64,000 nucleotides of DNA from an uncultured Mycoplasmatota bacterium (GTDB taxonomy: Bacteria; Bacillota_I; Bacilli_A; RF39; UBA660). This document shows, piece by piece, positions 3,999-54,287 of this stretch (position 1 is its first letter; each line of letters starts with the position of its first letter). Position numbers and translations under genes: made by a program. The DNA is taken from NCBI GenBank assembly GCA_900543675.1, contig UQRY01000002.1, positions 17,750 through 81,749 of the forward strand, in the 5' to 3' direction. Under the pieces are notes generated by a model. The model worked only from the letters and a program-made list of their open reading frames with translations. It was not told the DNA's origin and did not search any database.

Positions 3999-4007
3999 GA
4001 GGAAAAA

Positions 4008-4607
4008 ATGGCAAATACAAGTATATATGCAGAAATAAGAGAAATCAAAAAATATGCCTTAGATAATAAGATTCCCATCATGGTCGATGAAGGAATTGAC
4101 TTTCTAACGACGTTTATCATTAAAAACCAAACCACCAATATTTTAGAAATTGGTAGTGCGATAGGGTATTCCGCTATCATGATGGCACTCGCCAATCCTA
4201 ACGTGAAAATTACGACAATAGAACGTGATCATGAACGTTATCTAGAAGCAGTTAAGAATGTAAAAAAATTAGGATTAGAAGATAGAATTACGCTAATTTT
4301 TAACGACGCCTTAGAAACAACGATAGAAGGTAAATTCGATTTGGTTTTTATCGATGCGGCAAAAGGACAAAATATTCGTTTCTTTGAAAAATTCGAACCC
4401 AATTTAACGGATCATGGTGTAATCATTACCGATAATATTGATTTTCATGGTCTAGTTCAAAAAGATGTAGAAAGTATTCAAAGTAGAAATCTAAGAGGAT
4501 TGATTAGAAAGATTAGAGAGTATATCGATTATTTAAAAAACAATCCCAAATACGATGTTGAATTTCTAAAAGTAGGAGACGGTATCGCTGTTGCTCGTAA
4601 GAAATAA
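4008..4607 (+). CDS. trmR: SAM-dependent O-methyltransferase, YrrM/TrmR type (tRNA 5-hydroxyuridine methyltransferase)
   Basis: Near full-length collinearity with B. subtilis YrrM as recalled from memory (ILEIGSAIGYSAIMMA, VFIDAAKGQ, GVIITDN, VGDGIAVARKK). Synteny after mltG. Confidence 0.85.
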   Translation: MANTSIYAEIREIKKYALDNKIPIMVDEGIDFLTTFIIKNQTTNILEIGSAIGYSAIMMALANPNVKITTIERDHERYLEAVKNVKKLGLEDRITLIFNDALETTIEGKFDLVFIDAAKGQNIRFFEKFEPNLTDHGVIITDNIDFHGLVQKDVESIQSRNLRGLIRKIREYIDYLKNNPKYDVEFLKVGDGIAVARKK

Positions 4608-4650
4608 CCTATAAAACTTCAAAAACTGAAGGTTTTATAGGCTTTTTTTA
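4608..4650 (+). terminator. Rho-independent terminator after trmR
   Basis: 13-14 bp stem CCTATAAAACTTC / GAAGGTTTTATAGG with a 7-nt loop, followed by CTTTTTTTA. Confidence 0.85.
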
Positions 4651-4680
4651 TTGCCAAGCTGCGAATTTTGTCGATATAAT
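4651..4680 (+). promoter_or_regulatory. Sigma-A-type promoter of the four-paralog array
   Basis: TTGCCA (4651-4656), 18-nt spacer, TATAAT (4675-4680), immediately after the trmR terminator. Confidence 0.55.
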
Positions 4681-4688
4681 AAAAATAA

Positions 4689-4713
4689 ATGAAATTTTAG
4701 AGAAAAATTTCAT
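4689..4713. promoter_or_regulatory. 10-bp perfect inverted repeat at the predicted transcription start (operator or 5' stem-loop)
   Basis: ATGAAATTTT agaga AAAATTTCAT, starting 9 nt downstream of the -10 box. Confidence 0.4.
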
Positions 4714-4818
4714 AATAGTAAGATAGGCGGCGCACGATGATAAAAAAGAAAACAACAGAAAAATACAGTGATGAATACCCGATTAATAAACATTTAAATA
4801 GAAGAGTAGGAGGACAAA

Positions 4819-6477
4819 ATGGATAGAGAAAAATTATATTTAATTCGAAATATTGTAATAGATGCTGATAGGCACGATTATTACTTGCCTGATGATGTGG
4901 TTTCTTGTTTATATCAAGAAAATACATCCTTATTAAAAAAAATAATTGATTTTGATCAATCGACTTTAAAAAAAGAAAAACAATTTTTGTTTAATTTTGT
5001 TTTTCAATCAGAACTCCCTTCAGTAGAAAAAGAACAGATTTTAGATCATTTGATGGATTACGCCATTTCCAATCCGGCTGGATTAGTAAATAACTATACA
5101 ACAATGCTTACTACGGTTTCCAATCTTCATCCAACAAGTAAAGAGATGAACGGGATAATCAAGTCTTTAAAGAAGGATAACAATTTATCTGCGGTAATTA
5201 CTCCATTTGTCCAGGTATTAAGGATGAAACTAAATGCCAAAGAGATTTTAGAAGTACTAAGACCTATTTCTGAAGAAAAAGATTGGGATAGTCAATCTAT
5301 TTATATTATACCAAGGATCTTTTTTGACATGTGTCCGTACTTAGATGAACGTCTAATTTCTCATGATACCTTTTTACAATATTTATCTTGGGGATTAAAA
5401 GAACCAGCTATTTCTTATGCTTTAAGTTCTAAAGAAATGCTTTCTCTTGTTAGAAATAAAAAGATGACTGAAGAAGACTTAAAACAAATCATGACTTGGA
5501 TTTATCAAGAAGAAATAAAAAACAGAGTGGAAATGATCTTTACTAGTCTCAATTTTAGACGTTTAGTAGACAAAGAAAGTATAAGTGTAAAAGATGTACT
5601 TAATTTTATCGAAAAGCATTTAGAAGAAAAAGACAGCTATTCTATTTCTATTTTGACGGATATTCTTCTCCGGGTAGAAGATCAATATCTAACTAAAGAT
5701 GGCGTTCAAAAGGTAGATCATCTAGCTTTAACCGAAAAGATATCCTCTATTGGTAAGAAGTCAGAAGCAACAATCTATCCTAATCCTATCCTTTATTCCT
5801 TTTTAAAAAATGATTATAGTGAGGAAGCACTACTTCAAATAGTAAAATTTTTAAATAGTTTGAGAGAAGAACAACGATATGCTTGTAGAAATCTGTTGCA
5901 GCAGCTTCCTCAAGATATCAATCTTTCAACTATCCAAGAATTACTAGAACAGTTTGTTAAACTAGATCCAGTTGCTACATCAATGTTCACGGATATGTTT
6001 AGCATGAATAATAATAGATTATATATGATATTAAGGAAAAATAAAGAGTATTATTCTATAATTTTCTATTTATTTGATCACCTTTCTAATCCAGTAACTG
6101 AAGAAGAATTGGATAAGCTCTTCACGGTAGGGAACATCTTAACTACGATTCCTGATTTAGCTTGCGTTGGTGAAAAAGAATGTCAAAAAGTTTTTGAAGA
6201 CATAAATAATAGTCGTCATATTATCGATTTAGTCTTCTCAACGACTGAAGAGTGGCAAAGAAGAAATATGGTATCAGCCGCAAAAGAAAATTTTCACTAT
6301 AAAAATATCGCAGTAGATAGCTATTTAGCCTTTATTGAATATGCATCTATTTATCCACCATGTGAAGAAAAGATAGAAAAATTTAACCGGTATTCTAAAC
6401 AGATCGAAGAAATAGATCAATTATTGAGGGCAAAAGAAGAGAACAATTCAAAAATTAAAGCTTTAAACCATCAGTAA
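4819..6477 (+). CDS. Hypothetical protein, paralog 1 of 4 (tandem family, function unknown)
   Basis: 552 aa ORF with SD GGAGGA. Shares collinear motifs with the next three ORFs (EKLYLIRNIVIDAD..LPDDVV, FLQYLSW, VLNFIEKHLEEKD, IIDLVFSTTEEWQRRN). Confidence 0.85.
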   Translation: MDREKLYLIRNIVIDADRHDYYLPDDVVSCLYQENTSLLKKIIDFDQSTLKKEKQFLFNFVFQSELPSVEKEQILDHLMDYAISNPAGLVNNYTTMLTTVSNLHPTSKEMNGIIKSLKKDNNLSAVITPFVQVLRMKLNAKEILEVLRPISEEKDWDSQSIYIIPRIFFDMCPYLDERLISHDTFLQYLSWGLKEPAISYALSSKEMLSLVRNKKMTEEDLKQIMTWIYQEEIKNRVEMIFTSLNFRRLVDKESISVKDVLNFIEKHLEEKDSYSISILTDILLRVEDQYLTKDGVQKVDHLALTEKISSIGKKSEATIYPNPILYSFLKNDYSEEALLQIVKFLNSLREEQRYACRNLLQQLPQDINLSTIQELLEQFVKLDPVATSMFTDMFSMNNNRLYMILRKNKEYYSIIFYLFDHLSNPVTEEELDKLFTVGNILTTIPDLACVGEKECQKVFEDINNSRHIIDLVFSTTEEWQRRNMVSAAKENFHYKNIAVDSYLAFIEYASIYPPCEEKIEKFNRYSKQIEEIDQLLRAKEENNSKIKALNHQ

Positions 6478-6497
6478 AATACAAGGAGCATCAAGAC

Positions 6498-8144
6498 ATG
6501 AAAGAAAAATTACTATGCATTAAAAACATCCTAATAGAAGCAGATAAGGAAAATTGGAGTCTACCAGATGATGTAGTGTCACGGTTAATGAAAGAAGAAC
6601 TATTTATATTAGAAATTTTTAGTAGAGAAGAGCTAATCAATAAATCAACTCATCTTGAGTTTTTACTAAATACTCCTCATTTAGAGAAAGAAATCAAAAA
6701 ACAGTTGCTGATTAAATTAATCAAAATAGGGCAAGAAATGCGACTAGTGTGTAAGCAAGAAGCGTTCCATCGATATGTAGTTTCTATAATTGCGTTTTCT
6801 AACCTAGAACCATCCAAGGAACAATTAGAAAAATTTGTCGATGCAACGCGTAATCGAGCGGATCATGAGTACTTTACTGATATCATAACCGTATTAGGAA
6901 AAATAGGAATAGAAAAAAAAGAAATTCTAACCGTCTTGGATGGTATTCCGATAGAAAAGCCAGAAACAAATTCTTTCGCTACCTATAATATAGTCCGAAT
7001 TATTGATCTAAGGTCTACTTATGAATGGATCAAGAAAAATAAAATTTCTCGCGAGGACTTTTTAGAATATTTATCTTCAAGTATAAAAAATGAAAAGTTA
7101 TCCCAGTTATTACTAGAGAATGAGTTCAAAAAACTAGAATTAAATACACAAGACTTTAAGATGATTATGAATGATTTTAAAGAACAACAAGAATCATTCA
7201 CAGAACTAGAATATGAAATATTAAATAGTTACTATTTTTTAGAACAAGTGAATGAAAAAAGAATGACTGTTTCTCGCCTTTTAAACTTTATTCAAGAACA
7301 AAAATCAAAAGAAGATATTCTACCTATCCAAATATTTAACGATTTATTACCTGGAGAGTGGGGTAGGAAAGTAGACATCATCAAACTTAGTAAACAAATT
7401 GCGACAATTATTCATCAAGAAAAGAAGGGGTATTCCGAAGAGATAAGTCGATTACTAAATGATTCCAGTATTCCATCACGATTTAGTGAAAAAAATATGG
7501 AAGAAAGAAAAACACAATTTCTCAGTTTACTTACCTATTTATTACAATTAGATACTACTCAGTTTCCTTATTTTATGCGAATAGTAAACAGTGGAATCTT
7601 AAAAAGCGAAAAAGGTATTCAAGATATTACCGATTATCTAAAACAATTTGAAAAGCTATCTCCTCGTTTATTATCTACATTTAGCGAAGCGATAGCTAGC
7701 TATTCTGTTAGAACTACTACGTATGATTCGGCTTATTATGATTTGTATCCTTATCTAATTCAAAAACTATCGGATAGAGTTACTCAAGAAGAGAAAGAAA
7801 AATTAGAAACTGCGCTTTCTATTTTAGGTAATGAGAAAAGTGAAGCAAACTGTACCAATAATATAAGAAACATTCAAGAAATTATCGATCTTCTTTTTGA
7901 AACTAAGTACGATTGGCAACGTAAAAATATTCAAGAAGTAGCTTTAGATAAATATCCAGCCGACATAAAAAATAATACTTATTTAATGATCATTAAATAT
8001 ATGGCAGAAATGAAACAAAGAGATAAAAAAGAATTACCACCAAAACCACCAACTTCGCGTTATCGACATTTTCAAGCGCAGATAGACGAAGTAAATGCGA
8101 TGTTAGAAGAATTAGAACCACCAAAAACAAAACTTAAAAAATAG
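6498..8144 (+). CDS. Hypothetical protein, paralog 2 of 4
   Basis: 548 aa, SD AAGGAG, 20 nt after paralog 1. Motifs EKLLCIKNILIEAD..LPDDVV, ISREDFLEYLS, LLNFIQEQKSKED, IIDLLFETKYDWQRKNI. Confidence 0.85.
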   Translation: MKEKLLCIKNILIEADKENWSLPDDVVSRLMKEELFILEIFSREELINKSTHLEFLLNTPHLEKEIKKQLLIKLIKIGQEMRLVCKQEAFHRYVVSIIAFSNLEPSKEQLEKFVDATRNRADHEYFTDIITVLGKIGIEKKEILTVLDGIPIEKPETNSFATYNIVRIIDLRSTYEWIKKNKISREDFLEYLSSSIKNEKLSQLLLENEFKKLELNTQDFKMIMNDFKEQQESFTELEYEILNSYYFLEQVNEKRMTVSRLLNFIQEQKSKEDILPIQIFNDLLPGEWGRKVDIIKLSKQIATIIHQEKKGYSEEISRLLNDSSIPSRFSEKNMEERKTQFLSLLTYLLQLDTTQFPYFMRIVNSGILKSEKGIQDITDYLKQFEKLSPRLLSTFSEAIASYSVRTTTYDSAYYDLYPYLIQKLSDRVTQEEKEKLETALSILGNEKSEANCTNNIRNIQEIIDLLFETKYDWQRKNIQEVALDKYPADIKNNTYLMIIKYMAEMKQRDKKELPPKPPTSRYRHFQAQIDEVNAMLEELEPPKTKLKK

Positions 8145-8156
8145 GAGAATAGAATT

Positions 8157-9863
8157 ATGGATAAAGAAAAATTACTATTAATCAAAGAAATCTTGATTTA
8201 TGCCGACGAGGAGAAAATAAAATTATTACCGGCCGATGTAGTTCCTAAACTATTAAAAGAAAGTATCGATATTTTACAGACTTTAAAAAATGATGAGTCT
8301 ACACATAAACCACTTTACTTAGAATTTGTTGTGAAGGCAGATATCGAGGATAAAGAGTTGAAAAAACAATTATTAGAGGAAATCATGGAAATAGGAAAGA
8401 CTATTCCTTCTTATGATGAAGATAAAACAAAAAATTTTAATCAATATGTTACTTCAATTATGAAATTTAATACTCTTGGTCCAACCAAAGAACAACTACT
8501 TAGTTGGGCGAAAAAAACAAAAAATAGAGGAAAAGATAGTCAGTCAAGGATGAATAAAATCATTGATGAATTCCAGACACATGAATTTTCTAATCAGGAA
8601 ATTTTATCCGTGTGTCAGTCCTATCTTTCTAGTGATGTTGGTATAACCGATGCTGACATAACTTTACTCAATATTCATTTTATTTTAAGTAATGAAGATA
8701 TATATCAGTGGCTAAAAGAAAAAGAAATTTCTCGCGAAAATTTCTTGAAATACTTATCTTGGGCGATGGAAAAAAGTGAAATTGCCTCTTTACTAGATGA
8801 AGATAAATTCTTTTCGCTAGAGATTAATGCCGAAGAGGTTGATCAACTACTAACAAAAATGAAAAACCAGAAATCACCAAATTTAGATTTAGAAGAAATA
8901 TTACTAAACGACAATTTTCAAAGTTTAGTATGCTGTCAAAATATCAATATATCTTCTTTCCTTGAATTTCTTCAAGAGATAGAAGAAAAAGAGGATCATT
9001 TGTCCTTAGAAGTGTTTAATGCGCTTATTTCAGAATATTGGAATGAAATTTATGAAGAAACAAACTTACACGATAACTCTTGGCCAATCATTGAACTAAG
9101 TCAAAAACTTGCCTCTATAATTAGAAAAGTACCAGAAAAGTATCCAGAGAACTTAATCACTATAATAGACGACGAAAATTTCGTCCAATTATTGGGACGA
9201 GAGGAAGACCTAAAGAACAGTCAAACTCAACTCATCCATTTATGTGAATTTTTATCTCAACAGGATGAAATGAATCTCGATCTTCTGATAAAAATTTTAG
9301 AATATAGTAATATTTCGGGAAGTATGAATTCTATCTCTGATCTTATTTCCTTCTTCAAACAATTCGTACAACTGGATTATTCCCTTATAGAGTCACTTCA
9401 TCAATCGATAACCAGTTCAAATGTAAAGTACATTTCTTATAATAATGAACAAATTTATCAAGTGTATCCTTATCTAATAGGAAAGTTATCTGATCCTGTA
9501 ACTAAATTAGAAGAGAAGCAACTAGAAACGGCTCTTTCTGTTTTAGATCATGCAAAGTATGGAGAAACTGATACGTTAAACATCTATCGTGGAGTTATCG
9601 ATCTTATTTTCGAAACAAGATACAACTGGCAACGCCAAAATATTATTGATGTTGCGTCAGAAGATTATCCATCGAATTTAAATAAAGATGCTTATTTAAG
9701 TACTATCTTCTATATGTCTAAAATGAAAGAAAGAGATGAAAAAGAAATTCCACCAGAATTTTTTGCTCCTTCATACGAGCTTTACCAAAAACAAATCGAT
9801 GAAGTGGATAACTTGTTAAAACGATTGGAACAAAATAATCCTAAAATATTACAGAAAAAATAG
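8157..9863 (+). CDS. Hypothetical protein, paralog 3 of 4
   Basis: 568 aa, SD TAGGAGA, 12 nt after paralog 2. Motifs EKLLLIKEILIYAD, ISRENFLKYLSW, FLEFLQEIEEKED, VIDLIFETRYNWQRQNI. Closest to paralog 2. Confidence 0.85.
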   Translation: MDKEKLLLIKEILIYADEEKIKLLPADVVPKLLKESIDILQTLKNDESTHKPLYLEFVVKADIEDKELKKQLLEEIMEIGKTIPSYDEDKTKNFNQYVTSIMKFNTLGPTKEQLLSWAKKTKNRGKDSQSRMNKIIDEFQTHEFSNQEILSVCQSYLSSDVGITDADITLLNIHFILSNEDIYQWLKEKEISRENFLKYLSWAMEKSEIASLLDEDKFFSLEINAEEVDQLLTKMKNQKSPNLDLEEILLNDNFQSLVCCQNINISSFLEFLQEIEEKEDHLSLEVFNALISEYWNEIYEETNLHDNSWPIIELSQKLASIIRKVPEKYPENLITIIDDENFVQLLGREEDLKNSQTQLIHLCEFLSQQDEMNLDLLIKILEYSNISGSMNSISDLISFFKQFVQLDYSLIESLHQSITSSNVKYISYNNEQIYQVYPYLIGKLSDPVTKLEEKQLETALSVLDHAKYGETDTLNIYRGVIDLIFETRYNWQRQNIIDVASEDYPSNLNKDAYLSTIFYMSKMKERDEKEIPPEFFAPSYELYQKQIDEVDNLLKRLEQNNPKILQKK

Positions 9864-9874
9864 GAGATAAAAAC

Positions 9875-11578
9875 ATGAATATAGAAAAATTAAATAGTAT
9901 AAAAGAAATTCTGATTAAGATGGAAGAATATCAAGTAGAACTAATTAATCCTGAAGAATCTTTTCAAAAATTATTAAATGAAGAAGAAGAAACTTTACAG
10001 TTATTAGCAGAATTACCGCTTCTTCCTAATCAAGAAGCCAAAGAATTATATGAATTTTATCTATCTTTAAATAATACTAGGCATAAATATAGAATATTAC
10101 GTTATTTACTAAAAGATGAAACTAATCCTAAGAATTCGTTAAATGTAAATGTACTTGATGCCTTTTATCGCTTAAATCCAAGTGAAAAAAATCTATTTGG
10201 ATTTATAAAAAATATGGAACAAGTACCTGGAGTAGAAGAGAATTTTTTATTTATCACCTCGTATTTTCAAAAGGGACTAGGGGGATTTTCTAAACTAAGT
10301 AATCAGGAACTTCTTACTTTTCTAAAACCTTTTTATATAGACCGCCGGAGTTTTCTTTCAGGGTGGAGATTAAAAGAAGTGGCTGAATATTTAAGTAAAC
10401 TACAGGAAGAGAACAAGTTATTGACTAAGCAATATCTAACACAAGAAGAAATGTTAGAGTTATTATCCAAAAGTATAGATAATACCAATATTATTTCTAT
10501 TTTATCGTCTTCTAGTTTACTCAATATGTTAGAAAATAAACAGATAACACGAAAAGAGTATCAAACGATAATTCAACTGATTCTAAAAGAAAAAGAGGAT
10601 TATCAATCTGTGAAAATAACGGGATTCTTCACAGAGCCTAATTTAGAACGATTGATTACGGCATCTAATCTCTCAATGGAAGAAGTAATTCGTTTTGTTC
10701 AAGAACGTCAAAAATATCCGCTTAAAGAGAATATAGTAGCGTTAAGGATGTTTGAACAATTACTTTCTGATGAATGGTGTGACTATTGTTTAGCTACTCA
10801 TGAAAATCCACTTGTCTTAAGTCAAAAATTCGCTAGCTGGTTACAGATGCCTGCAGAATACTCTGGAAGTTTTATTAGTCATTTAGATAACCACAAAACC
10901 GACATCATTAGAATTCTAGAAAATGGGAAGAACCAACAAGAAAATTTTCAAGAAATGGAAGAACTAATTAACTTTATTAAAAATCTTCTTCCATATACGA
11001 GGATAATGACACTAAATTTGTTGGATAAAACCTGTCTTTCTTCTGTTACTTCTTTTCAAGAAGCCTTAACGAAGTTAAAACCATTAGAAGATAAGAGAGT
11101 AGATTTACCGTTATTAAATACAGTATCCTCATTAATCGATAATGACTGTTTTGAAGAAATGATAGCCACTAATCCAGATAGAAAAGAAGTTCTTTCCTAC
11201 TTAGTCATGAAAGAAATCAATACTAATGATCCTTTATATGTAGAAAAATTAAATACAGTTACTCGTATTTTAACCTCACGTCATTTTCTTTATCATGTGA
11301 ATCAGGTAGTAGAAAATGAACAATTATTTCAATTGATCAATATGATTTTTACTTGTGATAAAGAGTGGCAATTAACGAATCTTTATCAAATATCTACCGA
11401 AGAATATAGAGAAATATCTCCAGATACTTATTTACTACTCCTTCATTACATGAAAGAAAATCAGTGTCGCGATCAAATAACGGATAAAGACGAGTCTATA
11501 TATAGAAAGTATATTCGTCAAATTGATACGATGATAGAAAGTAAAAACAATAAAGTATATAAGAAAAGGAAAAAATAA
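9875..11578 (+). CDS. Hypothetical protein, paralog 4 of 4 (most diverged)
   Basis: 567 aa, SD TAGGAGA, 11 nt after paralog 3. Weaker versions of the same motifs (EKLNSIKEILIKME, MLELLSKSI, VIRFVQERQ, LINMIFTCDKEWQLTN, YLLLLHYM). Confidence 0.8.
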   Translation: MNIEKLNSIKEILIKMEEYQVELINPEESFQKLLNEEEETLQLLAELPLLPNQEAKELYEFYLSLNNTRHKYRILRYLLKDETNPKNSLNVNVLDAFYRLNPSEKNLFGFIKNMEQVPGVEENFLFITSYFQKGLGGFSKLSNQELLTFLKPFYIDRRSFLSGWRLKEVAEYLSKLQEENKLLTKQYLTQEEMLELLSKSIDNTNIISILSSSSLLNMLENKQITRKEYQTIIQLILKEKEDYQSVKITGFFTEPNLERLITASNLSMEEVIRFVQERQKYPLKENIVALRMFEQLLSDEWCDYCLATHENPLVLSQKFASWLQMPAEYSGSFISHLDNHKTDIIRILENGKNQQENFQEMEELINFIKNLLPYTRIMTLNLLDKTCLSSVTSFQEALTKLKPLEDKRVDLPLLNTVSSLIDNDCFEEMIATNPDRKEVLSYLVMKEINTNDPLYVEKLNTVTRILTSRHFLYHVNQVVENEQLFQLINMIFTCDKEWQLTNLYQISTEEYREISPDTYLLLLHYMKENQCRDQITDKDESIYRKYIRQIDTMIESKNNKVYKKRKK

Positions 11579-11635
11579 CTTTTCTTTTTCTTTGTTCTAT
11601 GATTAAATATAATCGAAAGAGGAAGAGGGAATAAT

Positions 11636-12520
11636 ATGCAGTATATCGTCGTTCCACAAAATAAACAAGAAATAAAAACCTATCAGGAAAAAGGAGTCAA
11701 TCTCTTTTTATTCGGATTAAAAAATTATAGTGTTCATTACCCAGAATTATCGCTAGAAGAGATCGAGGAACTTTCTAAGAAAAGTGAGCTTTTTATTGCG
11801 ATGAATAAAAATATTTTTAATGAAGAATTAGAAGAAGTAGAAAGATTACTAATCGAGTTAGAAAAAACAAATATCAAAGGGATTTTCTTCTATGATTTAG
11901 CCATCTTAAGTATCGTAAGAAGAAAACAGTTAAACTTAAATCTAGTCTGGAATCAAACCCATATGGTAACTAACTACAATACTTGTAATTATTACTTTGA
12001 AAAAGGAGTTAAATATGGGTTGGTCGCTAATGAGATTACTCTAGAGGAAATCATTGAGATGAAGAAAAAGACGAAGATGCAGTTGATGGTTCAAATCATG
12101 GGATACCCGAGTATGTCTCATTCTAGAAGAATGTTAATTTCTAACTATTTTAAAAGTATGGGAAAAGAGAAACAGAAAAATAGATATACCTTACAAGATC
12201 ATGCTAACCATGAGAATGATTATTTAATTACAGAAGATAAAACTGGAACTAGTCTTTTCTTTGGAAAGATCATTAACGGGACTAGAGCTTTGCCTGAATT
12301 AATTAGAAATCATCTTGATTATGGACTTCTAGACACTAGTTTTATTTCTAGGGATACTTCTTTACAAGTACTAGAATTATTTAACGAAATCAAAGAAAAA
12401 GTAGAAATAGGAGATAATATCGATTTAGATAACTATCTTGAAAAGACAGCTTCTTTGATTGGAGATAGTACCAATTTCTTCTATCAAAAAACCATTTACA
12501 AAGTGAAGAAAGGGAAGTGA
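11636..12520 (+). CDS. trhP1: Peptidase-U32-family protein, YrrN type (Cys-poor partner subunit of tRNA ho5U hydroxylation)
   Basis: U32-like TIM-barrel region lacking the Cys signature (QIMGYPSMSHSRRMLISNYF). Start of the next U32 gene overlaps its stop. Position equivalent to B. subtilis yrrN. Confidence 0.7.
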   Translation: MQYIVVPQNKQEIKTYQEKGVNLFLFGLKNYSVHYPELSLEEIEELSKKSELFIAMNKNIFNEELEEVERLLIELEKTNIKGIFFYDLAILSIVRRKQLNLNLVWNQTHMVTNYNTCNYYFEKGVKYGLVANEITLEEIIEMKKKTKMQLMVQIMGYPSMSHSRRMLISNYFKSMGKEKQKNRYTLQDHANHENDYLITEDKTGTSLFFGKIINGTRALPELIRNHLDYGLLDTSFISRDTSLQVLELFNEIKEKVEIGDNIDLDNYLEKTASLIGDSTNFFYQKTIYKVKKGK

Positions 12521-13710
12521 ACAACATGAAGAAAATAGAATTGCTTTCTCCTGCAGGAGATTTAGAACGATTAAAACTTGCCCTTCTATATGGGGCTGAT
12601 GCGGTCTATATCGGAGGTCAAGAATATAGTCTTCGGGCAAATGCCACCAATTTTAGTATCGAAGAAATTAAAGAAGCCTGTACCTTTGCCCATGAAAGAA
12701 ATAAAAAAGTATATTTAACTGCCAATATTGTTTTCCATAACGAAGATATTAGTGGAGTTGAAGATTATTTACGACAAGTAGCGAATGCCGGAATCGATGC
12801 CTTTATCGTGAGTGATCCGTTTATCATTCAATATATTCGTAAAAACTTCCCTGATGTAGAAGTTCACGTCAGTACCCAAGGATCAACAACCAATGTTGAA
12901 GCCGTTAACTACTGGAAGGGCGAGGGAGTAAAACGAGTCGTACTTGCCCGTGAACTATCGATGGAAGAGATTCAAACCATTATCGAAAAAACAGGAGTGG
13001 ATATCGAAGTATTCATTCATGGCGCCATGTGTACCTTCTATAGTGGACGTTGTACCTTATCAAATTATTTCACGAATCGTGATTCTAATCGTGGGGGCTG
13101 TAGTCAAGTATGTCGCTTTGCCTTTGATTTAGAAAGTGAAGATAGTCAAAAATTCACAATGGCAACCAAAGACTTAAACTTAGCTGACCAAATAGAAAAT
13201 ATGATTAAAATTGGCGTTACCAGTCTGAAAGTAGAGGGAAGAATGCGTTCTCACTACTACCTAGCGACCGTAATTTCTTCTTATCGTAAATTAATCGATC
13301 TTTGTTACCAAGATAAATTGACCAAGGAAGCTCTAGAAGAAGAAAAGAAAATATTAGCCCGTGTTGCGAATCGCGAAACGAGTTCTCATTATTTTACTCA
13401 TCAAGCGGATGAAACTGATCAATACTATACCGGTAGACAAGAATTATCCAATCAAGATTATCTCGCTTATGTGTTAGACTATGATCAAGAAAAACAGATG
13501 ATTACCATTTCCGAACGTAATTACTTTGAGCCAAATACTTTAGTAGAAATCTTTATGCCTAGTGGAAAGAGAATTTCCTTTACTATCGATACAATCTATG
13601 ATCAAGAATTAAATCCACTTGAAAAGGCTTGCCATCCTGAAGAAATTTTAAAAATAAGAGTTCCTGAAGAAGTAGAGGCAAACTCTATGATGAGAATAAA
13701 AGTAAATTAA
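12517..13710 (+). CDS. trhP2: Peptidase-U32-family protein, YrrO type (tRNA ho5U hydroxylation)
   Basis: Canonical U32 signature EVFIHGAMCTFYSGRCTLSNYF..RDSNRGGCSQVCR, plus LKVEGRMRS. Confidence 0.8.
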   Translation: MNNMKKIELLSPAGDLERLKLALLYGADAVYIGGQEYSLRANATNFSIEEIKEACTFAHERNKKVYLTANIVFHNEDISGVEDYLRQVANAGIDAFIVSDPFIIQYIRKNFPDVEVHVSTQGSTTNVEAVNYWKGEGVKRVVLARELSMEEIQTIIEKTGVDIEVFIHGAMCTFYSGRCTLSNYFTNRDSNRGGCSQVCRFAFDLESEDSQKFTMATKDLNLADQIENMIKIGVTSLKVEGRMRSHYYLATVISSYRKLIDLCYQDKLTKEALEEEKKILARVANRETSSHYFTHQADETDQYYTGRQELSNQDYLAYVLDYDQEKQMITISERNYFEPNTLVEIFMPSGKRISFTIDTIYDQELNPLEKACHPEEILKIRVPEEVEANSMMRIKVN

Positions 13711-13735
13711 AGAAAAAAATAAGGGAGTGGTCCTA

Positions 13736-15007
13736 ATGAATAGTTCAACAATATATTTAGGTAGCAAAGAAAGCGGAAGACGAGAATTTTTAATTATTCA
13801 ATCCATTTTAAAGTTACATGGTTTCGAGGCAATAGAAGTAAGAGAAGAACAGGATAGAAGTAGCCCAGAATTAGAAAACCCAACTATTTATTTACCGAAA
13901 AGTGATAACCCAAGCCCAGTCTTTTCATTTCCCTATGCCGACTTATCTAAAAGAAAACAGGTAGAAGATATTTTAGAGAGAAGAATATTCCCCCATAATA
14001 TGAGTCAAGAAGAAGAAAAATGGTGGCAGAAGCTATGTTCATCCTCAATTTTTTCCTATTTATATACAATAGATTATCTTTATGCGAATAAATTTCGTCA
14101 TTATAACGACACATCATTATTAAGAAAGGGAATATATAATACTAGTACTATCTTACTGGACCTAGAAACAACTTTAACTGAAGCGAAAAACTTTTCATGG
14201 CAACTTTATTATGCCTATTGTTATCTTGTTGAATACGTAAATAGTGGAATGAAAAGATTAAGAAGTTTTACGTTTCGCGATTATAAAGAAATATTACCAT
14301 ATCTCAACCAAATAGATAGGTTAAGTGCGAAACAAAGAGAGGAAGAAACTATTGCTTTATTAAAAGCCAACCTTCTAAATAGCCAATATTATCTCCCGTC
14401 AAAAGATGCGTATTCCGCTTATAATGCTCTAAAAGATTCCAACAACGATGCCATTCGATATACCAGTAATTATATACTAGGTACCTGTAAACAATTATCC
14501 CTAGAGCAAAATCATTGGGAACAATTAAGTGAAACAGAAAAAGCAGCAAAAATGCATCAAATTGCCATCCCACATTATCTAAAATGTCGAGAAATCCTTC
14601 CTCAAAAAGTTCAAATATTGTATAAATTAGCATTCCAAAAAGAAAGAAGAGAGGGCTATCAAAATTCTAATATATGGTTAGAGGCACGCGAATTATACTC
14701 TTTACTCATCTCCATAATAGAAAAAATTCCTGCTAGCGAAAGATATCCCGTTGAATTCCAATATTTATATCAAAGTTATCGCCGCTTGGAGTATATCGAA
14801 GAATTACTAGGAAATAATAAAGAAGCAATTAAATTAATAAATCATGCTGAAAATTGTTGGCAAGAAGCAGATGACTCCCTTTCCAGTTGGGTATATCAAA
14901 AAGAAAATGTCGCTTATCGCATATTAGATAACGAGTATAAAAATAGAGATCATTACTATGCGATAGCTAGAAAAAGAGTTAAAAGTAAAGAATATCGTCC
15001 GTATTAG
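13736..15007 (+). CDS. Hypothetical protein (helical, function unknown)
   Basis: Long ORF. ATG at 13736 sits 8 nt after SD AAGGGAG, so it is preferred over the tracked GTG at 13727. No recognisable motif. Confidence 0.6.
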   Translation: MNSSTIYLGSKESGRREFLIIQSILKLHGFEAIEVREEQDRSSPELENPTIYLPKSDNPSPVFSFPYADLSKRKQVEDILERRIFPHNMSQEEEKWWQKLCSSSIFSYLYTIDYLYANKFRHYNDTSLLRKGIYNTSTILLDLETTLTEAKNFSWQLYYAYCYLVEYVNSGMKRLRSFTFRDYKEILPYLNQIDRLSAKQREEETIALLKANLLNSQYYLPSKDAYSAYNALKDSNNDAIRYTSNYILGTCKQLSLEQNHWEQLSETEKAAKMHQIAIPHYLKCREILPQKVQILYKLAFQKERREGYQNSNIWLEARELYSLLISIIEKIPASERYPVEFQYLYQSYRRLEYIEELLGNNKEAIKLINHAENCWQEADDSLSSWVYQKENVAYRILDNEYKNRDHYYAIARKRVKSKEYRPY

Positions 15008-15703: not shown

Positions 15704-17932
15704 ATGAAAAAGAAAAAATCATTGTTAATAAAAATAGGCGACTTTATTGTCGATTTTCGATATCTATTTTTGTGCATTTTTATTTTACTAGGGATTATTT
15801 CGTTAGTAAATTTGAATAATGTAGAAATAGAATATGATATTACTTCTTATTTGAGTGATGAAACAGAAACCAAAGCTGGGCTCGAATTAATGGAAAAAGA
15901 GTTTGGCTCACTTAATGAACTTCAAGTAATGATTGAAGAAATTCCATTTCAAGAAGCTTTAGAATTAAAAGCAGAATTAGCATCAATTGATCATGTCGCA
16001 AGTATTTCTTTTGAAGATAATAAAAACTATTATAAGGATGACAAGGCTCTATTTGTCATCGAATTAGACCAAGTAACAGAAGAAGAAAAGGACACAGTCA
16101 TTACACAAATCGAAGACCAAGTTCAAGATGAAAAATACTTCTTATATGTAGAAAATGGGGAAGACCAGGTAGAAGGAATGAACATCATTTTAGGACTCGC
16201 AATCTTAACGATTATCGTTGTATTATTACTAACTACCGAATCTTACTTTGAAATTGTACTTGCTTTCTTGGTATTTGGTGTTTCTATTCTTCTCAATATG
16301 GGTAGTAACTTCTTATTTGGTAAGATTTCTTACATTACAGAAGCTATCGCCATTGTTTTACAACTAGGCTTATCCTTAGACTATTTCATTATTTTTATGA
16401 ATCATTATATGAAGGAAAGAAGCGATACTCCTAACCTAGAATTAGCGGTCAAGAAAACCGTTTCTAAATCCATCCCAGAAATACTAGCTAGTTCCTTAAC
16501 TACCATCGCAGGCTTAATTGCGTTAGTATTCATGCAGTTAAAAATTGGTGAAGATATCGGTTTAGTCTTATCTAAAGGTATCTTATGTAGCTTACTTACC
16601 GTAATTTTCTTGTTACCATTACTACTTATGGTATTTTCTAAGATCGTCGATAAGACAAAACATAAAGTGCATATTCCCAACATCAACAAGTTAGCTAACT
16701 TTATTGTAAGTTCTAGAAAAGTACTACTTCCGATCTTTATCCTTGTCTTAGTTCTCGCTATTTGTATTCTACCTAACTATGAATATGTCTATAATATTTA
16801 TTCAGTTAGTTCGTTAAACAAGAGTGATAACCAAATCGCGTTAGAGAAAATTAATGATACTTTCAGAAATACAAATCGTTTAGTCGTTCTCATGAAGAAT
16901 GAAGAAAAAGACTATACAAAAGAATTAGAATTAGCTAATCGTTTATTAGAAAATGATAAGATTAGTAAAGTGACGAGTATCGGAAATTATCGAGTAGGAG
17001 AGAATGTCTATCTAGGAAGCAAAGTTCAGTATCAAGAATTTGCCGTCATGTTTAATATTCCAGAAGAAATGAGTAGAAATTTATTTAGCTTATATATGAA
17101 TAGTCATCAAATAACACAAGAGGTTTCTACTTATCGAATAAATCTCGTGGATTTACTATACTTCTTAGATGAACAAAAAGAAAATCTACCATTATCAGAA
17201 GAGATGTTACTACAAATAGAAGGCTATAAGCAAGAATTAGAAAGCTCTATCTCGCTATTAGAAAGTCCAGAATATTCTCGAATGATTTTAGAGTTAAAAG
17301 TTCCTTCAGAAGGAGAAGAAACATTCTCCTTGTTAGATAGGATTAAAGAAGAAGTAGAAAAAGAGTATAGTGAAGTAAAACTAGTTGGTGAAAGTGTAAG
17401 TGCGACAGACTTAAGTGATTCTTTTTCTAGAGATAATACATTAATTACTGCGGTTACCATTTTATTTATCGCCATCATTCTCTTAGGTACTTTCCGTTCT
17501 CTTGGCGCAACGATTCTGTTGATTGTCGCTATCGAAGGAAGTATTCTAATTAACTTTTCACTCGCTACATTAATGGGAGAAAAGATATTCTTTATCAGTT
17601 ATATCATTGTTTCTGCGATTCAAATGGGCGCAACGATCGATTATGCGATTGTGATGACGAACCGTTATCTTACTTTACGAGAAAAACAAGATAAGAAACA
17701 AGCCTTAATCGGTGCCATTAAAAATTCCTTCCCAACTATCGCAACGAGTGGATTAATCTTAATGATTGCGGGATTCTTAATTGGCTTAATTTCTAGTTCT
17801 GGTGTTGTTTCATCCATTGGTTTATTCTTAGCTACCGGAACACTAATCTCTGTCTTGATTACCATCTTTATTTTACCAGCTTTATTATATGGTTTAGATG
17901 CTTTTATTCGTAAAACAACTTGGAAAAAATAG
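15704..17932 (+). CDS. MMPL/RND-superfamily membrane transporter
   Basis: 742 aa with two blocks of ~5-6 TM helices, each preceded by a large extracytoplasmic domain (YdfJ/MMPL architecture). SD GGAAGGTG. Confidence 0.8.
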   Translation: MKKKKSLLIKIGDFIVDFRYLFLCIFILLGIISLVNLNNVEIEYDITSYLSDETETKAGLELMEKEFGSLNELQVMIEEIPFQEALELKAELASIDHVASISFEDNKNYYKDDKALFVIELDQVTEEEKDTVITQIEDQVQDEKYFLYVENGEDQVEGMNIILGLAILTIIVVLLLTTESYFEIVLAFLVFGVSILLNMGSNFLFGKISYITEAIAIVLQLGLSLDYFIIFMNHYMKERSDTPNLELAVKKTVSKSIPEILASSLTTIAGLIALVFMQLKIGEDIGLVLSKGILCSLLTVIFLLPLLLMVFSKIVDKTKHKVHIPNINKLANFIVSSRKVLLPIFILVLVLAICILPNYEYVYNIYSVSSLNKSDNQIALEKINDTFRNTNRLVVLMKNEEKDYTKELELANRLLENDKISKVTSIGNYRVGENVYLGSKVQYQEFAVMFNIPEEMSRNLFSLYMNSHQITQEVSTYRINLVDLLYFLDEQKENLPLSEEMLLQIEGYKQELESSISLLESPEYSRMILELKVPSEGEETFSLLDRIKEEVEKEYSEVKLVGESVSATDLSDSFSRDNTLITAVTILFIAIILLGTFRSLGATILLIVAIEGSILINFSLATLMGEKIFFISYIIVSAIQMGATIDYAIVMTNRYLTLREKQDKKQALIGAIKNSFPTIATSGLILMIAGFLIGLISSSGVVSSIGLFLATGTLISVLITIFILPALLYGLDAFIRKTTWKK

Positions 17933-48271: not shown

Positions 48272-49147
48272 ATGGAAAAAGCAAAAGTATATTTTACAAG
48301 TGAAGTATCACCAGAAAGTGTTGTAAAAATCTATGAAGCATTAGGAGTAGAATTACCTGGTAAGGTAGCTGTTAAATTACATTCCGGAGAACAGGGCAAT
48401 CGAAATTATTTACGTCCTGAATTTGTTCAAAAAATGGTGGAAAGAGTAAATGGAACGGTTGTAGAGTGTAATACGGCTTATGAAGGAGCTAGAAATACAA
48501 CAGAGAAGCATAAGAAATTGATGGAAGAACATGAGTGGTCAAAATATTTCAATGTCGATATCATGGATGAAGAAGGACCAGATATGGAATTAGAAATCCC
48601 AAATGGTATTCAAATTAAGAAAAACTATGTTGGTAAACATATGGCTAATTATGATTCAATGTTGGTATTATCCCATTTTAAAGGTCATGCGATGGGAGGC
48701 TTTGGTGGAGCTTTAAAACAATTATCGATCGGTTGTGCATCTTCTTATGGAAAAGCATATATTCATGGCGCAGGGGAAGCTAAAGAAAATATATTTGGGA
48801 CTGATCAAGTAAAATTTGTTACATCGATGGGAGATGCTGCAAGTAGTGTTCACAAATATTTTAATGGTAATATTGCCTACATTAATGCGATGGTAAATAT
48901 TTCTATTGATTGTGATTGTGATGGAAATGCTTCTGCCCCTTGTATGAAGAATATTGGAATTTTAGCAAGCACTGATCCAGTTGCGATTGATCAAGCATGT
49001 ATTGATATTGTCTATAATAGTACTGATCCGGGTAAGGATAAACTAATTCATAGAATCGAAGAGAAAAAAGGATTATATATCATCGATACAGCTGAAAAGT
49101 TAAAGACTGGTACTAAAGAATACGAATTAATTAATATTGACAAATAA
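48272..49147 (+). CDS. DUF362-family protein (uncharacterised Fe-S-centre protein family)
   Basis: VAVKLHSGEQGN, ECNTAY, LSHFKGHAMGGFGGALKQLSIG and a C-terminal Cys cluster DCDCDG...C. ATG at 48272 sits 6 nt after SD AAGGAGAG. Confidence 0.7.
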   Translation: MEKAKVYFTSEVSPESVVKIYEALGVELPGKVAVKLHSGEQGNRNYLRPEFVQKMVERVNGTVVECNTAYEGARNTTEKHKKLMEEHEWSKYFNVDIMDEEGPDMELEIPNGIQIKKNYVGKHMANYDSMLVLSHFKGHAMGGFGGALKQLSIGCASSYGKAYIHGAGEAKENIFGTDQVKFVTSMGDAASSVHKYFNGNIAYINAMVNISIDCDCDGNASAPCMKNIGILASTDPVAIDQACIDIVYNSTDPGKDKLIHRIEEKKGLYIIDTAEKLKTGTKEYELINIDK

Positions 49148-49154
49148 AATAACA

Positions 49155-49185
49155 AAAAGAGAAAGCCTAAGAAACTTTCTCTTTT
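49155..49185 (+). terminator. Rho-independent terminator
   Basis: 11-bp stem AAAAGAGAAAG / CTTTCTCTTTT. Confidence 0.75.
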
Positions 49186-49240
49186 CCTATACAAACCAAA
49201 TTGTCTTAATATTCATATTTTATATTAGGTGATAAACAAT

Positions 49241-49888
49241 ATGAAAAAATTCTATCCGAGTAACTGTTTTATACTAGGACCAACTGGGCCGACAGGGCCT
49301 ACTGGGCCTAGTAATGGCATTATTGGTCCCACCGGTCCAATGGGAATGACGGGTCCAACAGGTCCCACCGGTCCAATGGGAATGACGGGTCCAACAGGTC
49401 CCACCGGTCCAACGGGAATGACGGGTCCAACAGGCCCCACCGGGCCAATCGGAATGACGGGTTCAACGGGCCCAACGGGTCCAGAAATAAATAATAATTA
49501 TGCTTTATTCCAAAATCAAGATACAGATATTACTTCTGGGACATTGATTCCCCTTTCTACGCAGTTTAGTGGCGGAAGTCCAACGATTACAGTAAGTGGC
49601 TCAACCATTACTTTACCTAGTCCAGGCACATATTACGTTTCCTTTAGTTTAACAGGCAGATTAGGCACTACTCAAAATGGAACCATAATTCCAATTATTG
49701 GTGGCGCAATCCAAGATCGTTATACTACCATCAATAATACCAATACTACTAATCCTGATATCACAATAGAAGATGGAGTTTTAGTTCAAGCACCTAGTAC
49801 TACTACTATCCAATTCTTCTACAGCGGAAGTACAGATATGTCTAGGGCTAACTTCTTTGTTTCTGTATTTAAAGTTTCCAACCAATAA
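49241..49888 (+). CDS. Collagen-like (G-X-Y) repeat protein with BclA-like globular C-terminal domain
   Basis: 23 G-X-Y triplets (GPT/GPM/GMT) with one register break, then a ~135 aa Thr/Ser/Gly-rich beta-type domain. ATG at 49241 after SD AGGTGA. Confidence 0.85.
49277..49483 (+). repeat. Tandem 9/36-bp coding repeats ([12 protein letters not shown] units)
   Basis: Near-identical units ggtccaacaggtcccaccggtccaatgggaatgacg repeated. Locally GC-rich compared with its surroundings. Confidence 0.9.
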
Positions 49889-49963
49889 AGTATATTCTAT
49901 TAAGCATGTACAAACAAAATAATATTTGCTAAAATAATGATAATAATGTAGGAGGCAAAGGTA

Positions 49964-50173
49964 ATGAAAAGAATTGAATTTATAACTATACAATCTAAAG
50001 TAAATGGTTATGGTTTGGGTAAAGGGGTAAAATATATTTTTGAAAATTATCGAGATATCATCAAAGAAAAACTAGAACAGGGTTATGAGTATAAAGGATT
50101 TCTTCCTGTTGAAATAAGGGGAACAGGAGAAATAGAAAAAATAGATTTAATTTTTGAGAGTGTAGAAAGATAA
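49964..50173 (+). CDS. Small DUF4177-like protein, tentative
   Basis: 69 aa. QGYEYKGFLPVEIRGTGEIEKIDLIFE resembles the DUF4177 C-terminal pattern. SD GGAGG. Confidence 0.45.
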   Translation: MKRIEFITIQSKVNGYGLGKGVKYIFENYRDIIKEKLEQGYEYKGFLPVEIRGTGEIEKIDLIFESVER

Positions 50174-50198
50174 CAACTAAATAACAAGGAGTAATTGT

Positions 50199-51065
50199 AT
50201 GAAAATTAAATTTATATCTAAAAAACACATTTTTTCGTTAATTAGTAACTTCGTTTTGGTTTTTTCTTTACTTTCGTTTTTATTAATAATCAGGAGAGAA
50301 ACGCCAAGTGTAATTTCTGCCAGCGATTTTACCCAATACATGAAAGAACAAGGCTGTGATATTATTGATGTTCAAGAACAAGCTAACTATCCTGGAGTAG
50401 ATACTTATTTAAACGTTTCCCAGTCGTGTCCATATTTAGCTAGTTATCTTGTTTTTCATGATGAAGCACAACAAGAGATGTTCTTCTCCACTTTAAAGAA
50501 AGAAGTATTATCTGCACCCAGCTTTCAATTTTTCACATACACAGAAATTCGTTTTCCTAGTTATCAAGAGTATTCAATAACAAGTAACCAATACAAAATG
50601 ATAACCCAAAATCAAAATTCCATTTTATTTGCTTTCGGTGATATCGAGGATAAGACTACTATTTTATCATTATTTCAACAATTCAATTATCATTATACCG
50701 GTAATATTTTCTATTTACTGGGAATTTTTATCCTCACTTTTCTTTTGATTTTTCTAGTTAGCTTTTGGAAAATCGAAAAGAAAATAAGAGATAAAGGCTG
50801 GATTGTTCTAATTCCATTTTATAATATTGGGTGCTTAACTAAAGACATATTCGGTTCAACTTGGCATGTACTTTTCCTATTTATTCCAATCATAAATATA
50901 TTCTTTATTTTAACTTTTCTCTATAAACTAGGAAAGGTGTTTAATAAGAGTAGTTATTATTGTATTGGACTTATGCTCTTACCAACAATTTTCTTACCAT
51001 TACTTGCTTTTGATGATTCAAAGTACAATATAGATAGAGGTCAAAATGAAACCAAATACAATTGA
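50199..51065 (+). CDS. Membrane protein with C-terminal DUF5684-like module
   Basis: N-terminal TM, ~150 aa extracytoplasmic region, then GWIVLIPFYNIG...LFLFIPIINIF...LLPTIFLPLLAF. Confidence 0.6.
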   Translation: MKIKFISKKHIFSLISNFVLVFSLLSFLLIIRRETPSVISASDFTQYMKEQGCDIIDVQEQANYPGVDTYLNVSQSCPYLASYLVFHDEAQQEMFFSTLKKEVLSAPSFQFFTYTEIRFPSYQEYSITSNQYKMITQNQNSILFAFGDIEDKTTILSLFQQFNYHYTGNIFYLLGIFILTFLLIFLVSFWKIEKKIRDKGWIVLIPFYNIGCLTKDIFGSTWHVLFLFIPIINIFFILTFLYKLGKVFNKSSYYCIGLMLLPTIFLPLLAFDDSKYNIDRGQNETKYN

Positions 51066-51163
51066 TGAATATATCGCATTAGCTAAAGCGGACATTTATT
51101 GACAGTAATCATATTTTTCATTCTTTTATATATTGGTTACCAAGTAAACTGGTATTATATTGT

Positions 51164-52082: not shown

Positions 52083-52094
52083 AAGAAAGGAACA

Positions 52095-54242: not shown

Positions 54243-54287
54243 AGTTTCCTATGAATAATTCAAAAAAGACAGAGCTTCTTTAAGTAT

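Follow-up and report, generated by a model that had tools for sequence, protein, structure and literature searches.

Tandem paralogs of an orphan protein family between the trmR-like and trhP2-like genes of uncultured gut Bacilli

The array and its database relatives

The DNA analysed here is a stretch of 64,000 nucleotides (nt), called the window throughout, from contig UQRY01000002.1 of an uncultured Mycoplasmatota bacterium; all coordinates are positions of the whole window. Between a trmR-like gene and a trhP2-like gene lies an array of four consecutive genes for large, highly diverged paralogous proteins, which a sequence-only reading had described as a self-contained module reminiscent of immunity or sensor arrays. 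The genes are designated P1 to P4 in order and are assigned to paralog lineages lettered A to J, with reference to comparable loci on metagenome and database contigs (L001-L035). By this comparison, the window retains part of a longer array that has been reshuffled by recombination. The four open reading frames (ORFs) are as follows, with lengths in amino acids (aa) and isoelectric points (pI):

4819-6477, + strand: paralog 1 (P1, lineage A), 552 aa, pI 5.2
6498-8144, + strand: paralog 2 (P2, lineage B), 548 aa, pI 5.8
8157-9863, + strand: paralog 3 (P3, lineage C), 568 aa, pI 4.65
9875-11578, + strand: paralog 4 (P4, lineage D with a chimeric E/D 5' end), 567 aa, pI 5.2

The coordinates and sizes of these four co-oriented ORFs are as first described, and so are the spacers of 20, 12 and 11 nt that separate them. 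Each of the three spacers contains a GGAG-type ribosome-binding site, which bears out the claim that each gene has its own Shine-Dalgarno sequence, and the TAG stop codons of genes 2 and 3 are embedded in the TAGGAG of the next gene; the four ORFs constitute one operon. In an all-against-all BLASTP comparison, P2 and P3 are 36% identical (E = 1e-91 to 1e-94), P1 is 26-27% identical to either of them (E = 1e-33 to 1e-36), and P4 is 22-23% identical to P1, P2 and P3 (E = 1e-11 to 1e-14). Homology among the four paralogs is far above chance, though deep, with P2 and P3 the closest pair and P4 the outlier, as had been proposed. The short motifs previously seen to be shared by the four proteins are real, and fall within the two most conserved regions (residues 1-40 and 481-560, P3 numbering). 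When six-frame translations of the 64 kb were compared with a hidden Markov model (HMM) of the family, no copies other than these four were found.

Profile comparisons with Pfam and the PDB yielded no confident match to any characterised family. Scans of the array proteins against Pfam and NCBIfam gave nothing above noise; known immunity-protein profiles (the Imm families, SUKH, DUF600 and others) were among those without a match, and the matches to Pfam repeat families (TPR, Sel1, HEAT, ARM, PPR, MTERF, ANK) were sub-threshold chance matches with E >= 0.025, below the gathering cut-offs. A PDB-sequence profile search returned only a chance match (E = 0.23), a PADLOC-DB scan of 16 family members gave no anti-phage defence match (best E = 0.015, for a single member), and PHROGs gave no match below 1e-3. 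No family member was found in phage and plasmid collections (tblastn) or in a scan of IMG/VR.

Among protein collections, a word-indexed search of 5.8 billion proteins returned 11 clusters, and an exhaustive HMM search of 1.84 billion representative proteins returned 19 matches, 11 of them longer than 500 aa and the rest shorter or fragments. All 19 come from one genus-level lineage of gut Bacilli, Candidatus Alloscybalousia, for which the sole named source is a metagenome-assembled genome (MAG) from chicken gut, Candidatus Scybalousia (now Alloscybalousia) intestinigallinarum, Bacilli incertae sedis; one GTDB species representative with the family was found. On the evidence of these searches, the array family is an orphan confined to one genus-level lineage. 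The protein family is new and uncharacterised; a recombining string of tandem paralogs is a known evolutionary pattern.

Array content, recombination and divergence

The species of the window is also represented by L009 and L035, which carry the window haplotype, and by L011, in which TrmR is 100% identical and the nucleotide sequence is 99% identical over window positions 4001-9871. The sister species is Candidatus Alloscybalousia intestinigallinarum (L001-L005, L008), and L006 belongs to a third species. All genomes of the lineage that are readable here carry the family at the same junction between trmR and trhP2, but its content differs:

Window, L009 and L035: A-B-C-D, 4 genes
L011 (conspecific): A-B-C-F-E-D, 6 genes
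Ca. A. intestinigallinarum (L001-L005, L008): A-B-C-F-E-G and an internally deleted relic
L006 (third species): H, IS605 TnpB remnants, two degraded copies, then E, I, J and a D-type 3' relic

Arrays contain 4 to 7 copies, drawn from at least 10 paralog lineages, and the number varies (four versus six) even within the species of the window. The 10 lineages resolved by a neighbour-joining tree group into three deep clades, (J, D, E), (I, A) and (H, F, B, G, C), and no array examined is without an intact member of any deep clade. Homopolymer tracts give rise to frameshifted pseudogene copies, one of which was seen in four independent samples. Relics are found immediately before trhP2: in L002, positions 17068-17374 between the last intact paralog and trhP2 hold relics of a J-type 5' end (89% over 57 nt) and of a D-type 3' end, and in L006, positions 16035-16250 hold a relic of a D-type 3' end. 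The pattern is one of birth-and-death evolution, in which an ancestral array of at least seven genes has been differentially retained, pseudogenised and deleted. The array is older than the divergence of at least three species in the genus, and its present course is mainly one of erosion and reshuffling.

The four-gene state of the window is a deletion derivative of an A-B-C-F-E-D array. Relative to L011, lineages F and E are missing. The junction after gene 3 uses the 3' end common to C and F (...ATATTACAGAAAAAATAGGAG), and the 3' end of gene 3 has exact tracts of 22-24 nt in common with lineage F genes. The beginning of gene 4 carries a scar of the event:

9864-9907, + strand: recombination scar, comprising the spacer and the first ~11 codons of gene 4, derived from a gene of lineage E (alignment to L011 and L010)

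The spacer and nt 1-32 of gene 4 match the 5' end of the L011 E gene exactly, and from nt 34 onward the gene follows D of L011 and L010. Gene 4 is hence an E/D chimera left by the deletion. The chimeric junction is not an assembly artefact, because the same haplotype is present on 7 contigs, one of them in the NCBI gut MAG GCA_902460995.1. Window gene 4 and gene 5 of L002 were considered as orthologs and rejected; they belong to the distinct lineages D and E, both of which are carried by L010 and L011. Across all genomes, exact matches of at least 20 nt between different lineages occur only within nt 1-62 and approximately the last 210 nt of the genes. The array is reshuffled when neighbouring paralogs undergo homologous recombination at their conserved 5' and 3' blocks.

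The array genes diverge much faster than their neighbours. Between the window and the sister species, the flanking genes have 91.5-97.5% protein identity (95% for the product of trmR), synonymous divergence (dS; Nei-Gojobori) of 0.31-1.27, and ratios of nonsynonymous (dN) to synonymous divergence of 0.02-0.09. In contrast, the true orthologs of lineages A, B and C have dS of 0.24-0.77 and dN/dS of 0.27-0.40: P1 is 66% identical to its ortholog (dN/dS 0.27), P2 83% (0.37), and P3 56-57% (0.40). The non-orthologous pair of D in the window and E in L002 has 41% identity, dS of 1.09 and dN/dS of 0.48. Overall, array genes are 39-83% identical between species at dS similar to that of the flanks, and their dN is 5-20 times flank dN. 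Within the species (window versus L009), dN/dS is 0.16-0.25 for array genes and 0.04-0.16 for the flanks. The drift suspected from the sequence can thus be expressed as 22-36% identity between paralogs and dN/dS of 0.27-0.48 between species, versus 0.02-0.09 for the flanks.

The array genes are under weakened but real purifying selection, because dN/dS is well below 1 and ORFs of ~550 codons remain intact in DNA of ~30% G+C content. In a McDonald-Kreitman comparison of the species of the window with the sister species, the ratio of nonsynonymous to synonymous differences in the array is 1.83 for fixed and 1.55 for polymorphic differences, and ~0.24 for both in the flanks. Gene 3 is a mosaic relative to the C-type allele of L010, with dS of 0.06-0.26 over codons 1-120 and 0.5-2.1 over codons 150-450; the U32 genes of the two contigs have a dS of only 0.06. 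This mosaic suggests that old divergent alleles have been exchanged by recombination, although L010 is a single contig that could be chimeric. As for the supposition that the block is accessory rather than housekeeping, it holds up: the family occurs in one genus-level lineage, its copy number varies within a species, and its dN far exceeds that of the flanks. Because of this narrow range, variable copy number and fast divergence, the array is the opposite of a block conserved throughout the order with low divergence.

The trmR-trhP2 junction and its control elements

The features that surround the array, on the same strand, are:

4008-4607, + strand: trmR-like (YrrM) O-methyltransferase gene (Pfam Methyltransf_3, E = 7e-26)
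4608-4649, + strand: intrinsic terminator of trmR, a 14-bp stem and U-tract, left boundary of the module (RNA fold, sequence)
4651-4680, + strand: sigma-70-type promoter TTGCCA-18-TATAAT (11/12 positions match)
4689-4713, + strand: 10-bp palindrome ATGAAATTTT-N5-AAAATTTCAT just past the -10 element (fold -6.5 kcal/mol, z = -4.4)
4737-4826, + strand: 29-codon leader ORF with an 8-nt overlap of the gene 1 start (gene call in L009 and L035)
11579-11635, + strand: 58-nt spacer before trhP2, right boundary of the module (conservation, RNA fold)
11636-12520, + strand: trhP2-like gene (YrrN-type, U32 domain only; Pfam Peptidase_U32, E = 3e-27)
12517-13710, + strand: trhP1-like gene (YrrO-type, U32 and U32_C; Peptidase_U32, E = 1.7e-80; Peptidase_U32_C, E = 4e-22)

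The gene order is YceG/mltG, trmR, the array, the two U32 tRNA-hydroxylase genes (trhP2-like, then trhP1-like), an orphan ORF, a TetR gene and an MMPL gene. The Methyltransf_3 gene, the gene with U32 only and the gene with U32 and U32_C match the B. subtilis operon yrrM-yrrN-yrrO, in which yrrN is trhP2 and yrrO is trhP1 (Sakai et al. 2019, PMC6599085), so the locus is correctly placed as a conserved trmR/trhP locus. The sequence-only reading had the two trhP names swapped: because yrrN is trhP2 in that work, the gene right after the array, with U32 only, is trhP2-like, and the trhP1-like gene follows it.

The junction was surveyed by scanning metagenome contigs with the window TrmR and annotating the loci returned. 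In the nearest sister lineage, from which the family is absent (TrmR 72% identical; four independent contigs, L012-L015), the U32 gene begins 77 nt after trmR, which is the B. subtilis arrangement. In lineages with TrmR 59-68% identical, unrelated genes occupy the same junction, none of them matching the family HMM. The junction between trmR and trhP2 is therefore a general insertion hotspot, of which the array is a lineage-specific occupant, since trmR is next to U32 in the sister lineage and other lineages carry unrelated cargo. Such occupancy argues against a tRNA-modification role of the array, which has no demonstrable link to tRNA modification. The synteny comparison also qualifies the proposal that a module was placed inside the locus: the array is a lineage-specific module in an otherwise contiguous trmR-trhP locus, but the insertion is not recent, as at least three species diverged after the array was in place, and the four-gene state is derived from six or more. 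In keeping with the synteny check that had been suggested, trmR adjoins a U32 gene in the sister lineage and copy number is 4 to 7 among arrays.

The cargo found at this junction elsewhere consists of one to three membrane proteins (L017 4139-5750, L019 10608-12222, L018 1510-3152, and also L021 10582-13253 and L026 10531-11774) or of a prepilin-like protein (L016 3255-4436). One type of membrane protein begins M..L.CSE.L..CC.DYGL, with a Cys-rich N-terminus followed by a transmembrane segment. A single-copy ancestor of the family was considered for the 1.2-2 kb gaps between trmR and U32 in distant lineages and was rejected, as these hold unrelated membrane or pilin-like genes (HMM E > 0.01). 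The two U32 genes, which in the window overlap, are separated in the sister lineage by a 162-aa lipoprotein-like ORF (L012 11546-12034).

The locus has a further variable site at 13727-15007, directly 3' of the trhP1-like gene. It is occupied by a 426-aa orphan ORF with only a weak hint of TPR_14, which is present in the species of the window (L009, L010, L035); the sister species has HTH-Peptidase_M78 and DUF3368 instead. This ORF was tried as a fifth paralog and dropped, being non-homologous (BLASTP E >= 0.17).

The control elements described at the left end are all present in the window. The terminator that had been called strong is a hairpin (4608-4641) of -13.6 kcal/mol with z = -5.06, and 0/200 shuffled sequences fold as well; the promoter attributed to the array, TTGCCA-18-TATAAT, ties for the top score in the 12 kb scanned; and the palindrome near the transcription start is found at 4689-4713. 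The promoter is kept only within the species, the sister species having a different promoter-like site, TAGACT-16-TATAAT, in a longer, unrelated leader. The palindrome is a possible operator or 5' hairpin, but it is not conserved in L002, L006 or L008, so that a conserved operator was dropped from consideration and any role is species-specific or absent. The 29-codon leader ORF is absent from the sister species, and an Rfam scan found no element in the array leader.

At the right end, no intrinsic terminator was found after paralog 4, in agreement with the sequence-only reading. In L002 and L006, the spacer ahead of trhP2 shows 85-92% conservation, whichever paralog precedes it. It holds the -10-like elements TGaTTAAAT and TATAAT, and a hairpin (-14.5 kcal/mol, z = -2.65) in which the pyrimidine tract CUUUUCUUUUUCUUU pairs with the purine-rich ribosome-binding region. 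The spacer is a possible control element of trhP2, acting on translation or transcription.

Elsewhere in the window, group II intron RNA domains are found at 41486-41721 (Rfam RF02005) and 42203-42315 (RF00029), followed by a 515-aa ORF (region 41486-43850) with no Pfam match at 1e-5. A cluster at 44890-57748, a possible defence or mobile island, includes a 1018-aa orphan ORF, an Amidoligase_2 protein (52764-54242), a 357-aa dCTP-deaminase-like protein (54288-55361, minus strand) and a ClpB-like AAA protein (56132-57748).

Predicted fold and possible roles of the array proteins

The array proteins are acidic (pI 4.65-5.8, net charge -7 to -40), with a C-terminal tail rich in Lys. As had been observed, they have no transmembrane helix (top Kyte-Doolittle 19-residue score <= 1.5), and likewise no signal peptide or lipobox; nor is there a catalytic signature, Walker A and HExxH both being absent. 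The proteins are soluble. Two AlphaFold2 runs, on P3 (10 sequences; best model pLDDT 80, the remaining four 54-62) and P4 (18 sequences; all five models pLDDT 76-80, pTM 0.63), both predict all-alpha proteins of ~35 helices with no strands. From about residue 190 on, helix starts in the DSSP strings fall in groups of three that recur every 36-47 residues, which would amount to about a dozen three-helix units of ~40 residues per protein. An hhalign self-comparison detects an internal repeat with an offset of 72-82 residues (110-400 versus 192-484; P = 1.5e-5, probability 80%, 16% identity), an offset of approximately two such units.

In Foldseek searches of the PDB, the transcription activator-like (TAL) effector dHax3 came first for both models (E = 3e-4 and 2e-3; probability 0.93-1.0), but with TM of 0.14-0.20 and a root-mean-square deviation (rmsd) of 23-27 Å. 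The next matches of both models were designed helical-repeat proteins, TM-scores being 0.14-0.22 overall; MTERF1 was among the matches of the P3 model only (E = 0.24), and BFVD gave only generic long-helix proteins, e.g. tape-measure proteins. With TM-scores below 0.22, these matches are taken as evidence for the predicted shape, an elongated helix-turn-helix solenoid, and not for homology. According to the alignment and block conservation profile, a fast-evolving repeat region lies between a conserved N-terminal cap (~40 aa) and a conserved C-terminal module (~90 aa). The latter contains the motif K-x-R-D-x-x-E-I-P-P (YM..MK.RD..EIPP), followed by the Lys-rich tail. The K-x-R-D...IPP segment is the sole internal region with pLDDT < 50 in both models, and a segment that is conserved but predicted to be disordered would be typical of a short docking motif.

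The paralogs may tentatively be viewed as a set of non-enzymatic binding proteins whose behaviour resembles that of an immunity or sensor array, an interpretation favoured here over its rivals though with less than even confidence. The proteins would be binding modules without enzymatic activity; the variable solenoid would be a recognition surface for diverse ligands, and the conserved ends would serve either for docking to a shared partner or for assembly of paralogs with one another. Together the proteins would provide a cytoplasmic repertoire against variable ligands such as incoming toxins or the proteins of phage or mobile elements, in the manner of the strings of non-identical immunity genes of Firmicutes. 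The more specific proposal of a hitherto unrecognised type of self-protection repertoire is unlikely as it stands; in it, large cytoplasmic alpha-solenoids with no enzymatic domain would each use a hypervariable repeat surface to bind and neutralise, or sense, a different variable invader protein (an interbacterial toxin or a phage protein), would signal or assemble via their shared ends, and would gain new specificities by recombination between paralogs.

Several known systems resemble the array in part. The esaG (DUF600) and tipC immunity strings of type VII secretion systems (T7SS) are same-strand tandem paralogs with blocks of homology at the 5' and 3' ends, and recombine by the same mechanism (Garrett et al. 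2022, PMC9484751): recombination between neighbours deletes, expands and fuses genes, and copy number differs between strains. In contrast, the array family has no sequence or Pfam relationship to them and no T7SS or toxin gene nearby. The tandem lipoprotein-like lpl cluster of S. aureus also diversifies by recombination at conserved blocks, with evolutionary units that cross gene boundaries (Tsuru and Kobayashi 2008, PMC2568036), but its products are lipoproteins with a central conserved block, whereas the array proteins have no signal peptide and their conserved blocks are terminal. The acquired interbacterial defence (orphan immunity) clusters of gut Bacteroidales (bioRxiv 10.1101/471110; PMC12247911) are likewise fast-evolving gut arrays that vary between strains and have no cognate toxin beside them; they are mobile clusters of unrelated immunity families directed against type VI secretion system toxins, whereas the array is a single family, chromosomal and syntenic, in a Gram-positive lineage.

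With respect to predicted shape, the array proteins resemble TAL effectors (dHax3, PDB 3v6t and 4osv) as the top Foldseek PDB match for two models and as long helix-turn-helix solenoids; however, the array repeats are irregular and barely detectable, the proteins are acidic, and there are neither positions of the repeat-variable-diresidue (RVD) type nor a Pfam TAL match. ARM, HEAT, TPR and Sel1 scaffolds and the sensor arms of STAND/Avs proteins share with the array proteins all-alpha repeats (in the latter, predicted three-helix units of ~40 residues from DSSP), the lack of a catalytic motif and a fast-evolving repeat region. Unlike these scaffolds and sensor arms, the array proteins have no repeat-family match, no NTPase or effector domain fused or adjacent, and no PADLOC match.

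A number of observations weigh against such a role in immunity or sensing. PADLOC and a Pfam scan of 19 window ORFs, which cover only part of the 64 kb, reveal no adjacent gene for a toxin, secretion system, phage function or known defence system. The array proteins are 3-5 times larger than typical immunity proteins; EsaG and TipC have roughly 160-200 aa, versus ~550 aa for the array proteins. The array is chromosomal, syntenic and old, and is not on a mobile island. The conserved ends may partly reflect gene conversion rather than function, and even the term solenoid depends on predicted models, with fold TM-scores < 0.22. L010 is a single metagenome contig, and its assembly may be chimeric. 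The rates are accounted for just as well by relaxed constraint on redundant paralogs, and the data fit continuous diversifying pressure or relaxed constraint alike. Positive selection was considered and dropped: the McDonald-Kreitman comparison is not significant (neutrality index 0.85, p = 0.21), and sliding-window dN/dS exceeds 1 in three small stretches only, one in gene 3 versus L010 and two in gene 2 versus L002, each with only 2-6 synonymous differences. The resemblance to immunity or sensor arrays that had been suggested thus stands with respect to evolutionary behaviour, whereas no link to toxins, phage or defence was found and the McDonald-Kreitman result lends it no significant support.

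A structural explanation is also rather unlikely, but has the most in its favour among the alternatives: the paralogs may be lineage-specific structural or scaffold proteins, three non-redundant classes in a hetero-oligomer with an ordinary role, evolving under relaxed constraint without an arms race. The classes would stem from an ancient series of duplications, and redundancy inside each class would permit drift, loss and pseudogenisation. The single, tightly spaced operon would suit such a complex, as would duplications that predate speciation with the lineage order A-B-C-F-E-(G/D) kept, and the intact member of each of the three deep clades in each array examined (at least one); dN/dS is below 1 nearly everywhere, the McDonald-Kreitman result is non-significant, and the phage, plasmid and IMG/VR collections give no link to mobile elements. 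An ordinary role is less easily reconciled with the presence and absence of whole genes between conspecific strains, chimeric genes, recurrent pseudogenes in natural populations, dN 5-20 times that of the flanks, and the absence of the family from a sister genus with the same conserved neighbourhood.

Sequence-specific nucleic-acid-binding solenoids of the TAL effector, MTERF or PPR type, each paralog having its own DNA or RNA target, possibly tRNA or mRNA, are improbable. dHax3 is the top Foldseek PDB match for both models and MTERF1 appears at E = 0.24, recurrent S/T-x-x-E helix-capping motifs read from the sequence resemble the starts of TAL effector repeats, and the C-terminal tail is Lys-rich, but all members are acidic throughout the pI and charge range given above, TM-scores are 0.14-0.21 with rmsd of 23-27 Å, and there is no Pfam TAL, MTERF or PPR match. 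Moreover, hhalign detects no regular, near-identical repeats of 33-35 aa, TRF finds no DNA tandem repeats inside the array genes, and the cargo at the trmR-trhP2 junction in other lineages is unrelated.

It is quite improbable that the proteins are exported without a Sec signal, by a T7SS-like or other route, to act on hosts or competitors, with variation serving antigenic or target diversity. Some exported multigene families typically have products that are helical throughout, with conserved termini around a variable core, and the array undergoes recombination and homopolymer frameshifts; however, signal peptides, lipoboxes and transmembrane segments are absent from the proteins, Pfam identifies no LXG or WXG domain, and 0/19 window ORFs scanned against Pfam (part of the 64 kb only) is a secretion-system gene.

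Very improbable, too, is the idea that the genes are decaying remnants of an old expansion that drift toward loss without present function. Several pseudogenes, internal-deletion relics, an insertion sequence and a dN/dS that is high relative to the flanks are what decay would leave, but dN/dS is 0.16-0.48 rather than ~1, at least four intact copies are present in all genomes examined, and ORFs of 550 codons cannot persist by chance where stop triplets are estimated here at ~8% per random codon (30% G+C). Scarcely credible are accessory factors of the 5-methoxyuridine (mo5U) tRNA-modification pathway co-expressed with trmR and trhP, for which only the position between trmR and trhP2 and possible read-through in the absence of a terminator after gene 4 speak, since the sister lineage, B. 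subtilis and most relatives have the pathway genes without the family, unrelated membrane proteins occupy the same junction elsewhere, and the array has variable copy number and pseudogenes.

If the array is indeed a repertoire for conflict with variable invaders, an uncultured lineage of the human and animal gut would possess a new protein family and perhaps, through solenoid binding, a new way of achieving immunity or sensing, which would enlarge the range of defence and immunity repertoires known beyond model organisms. Irrespective of function, the array is a clean natural example of conserved gene termini that drive deletion, fusion and copy-number change inside a housekeeping operon, and it marks the junction of trmR and trhP2 as a recurrent insertion hotspot in these Bacilli. 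The family also provides a set of natural, highly diverged helical-repeat scaffolds.

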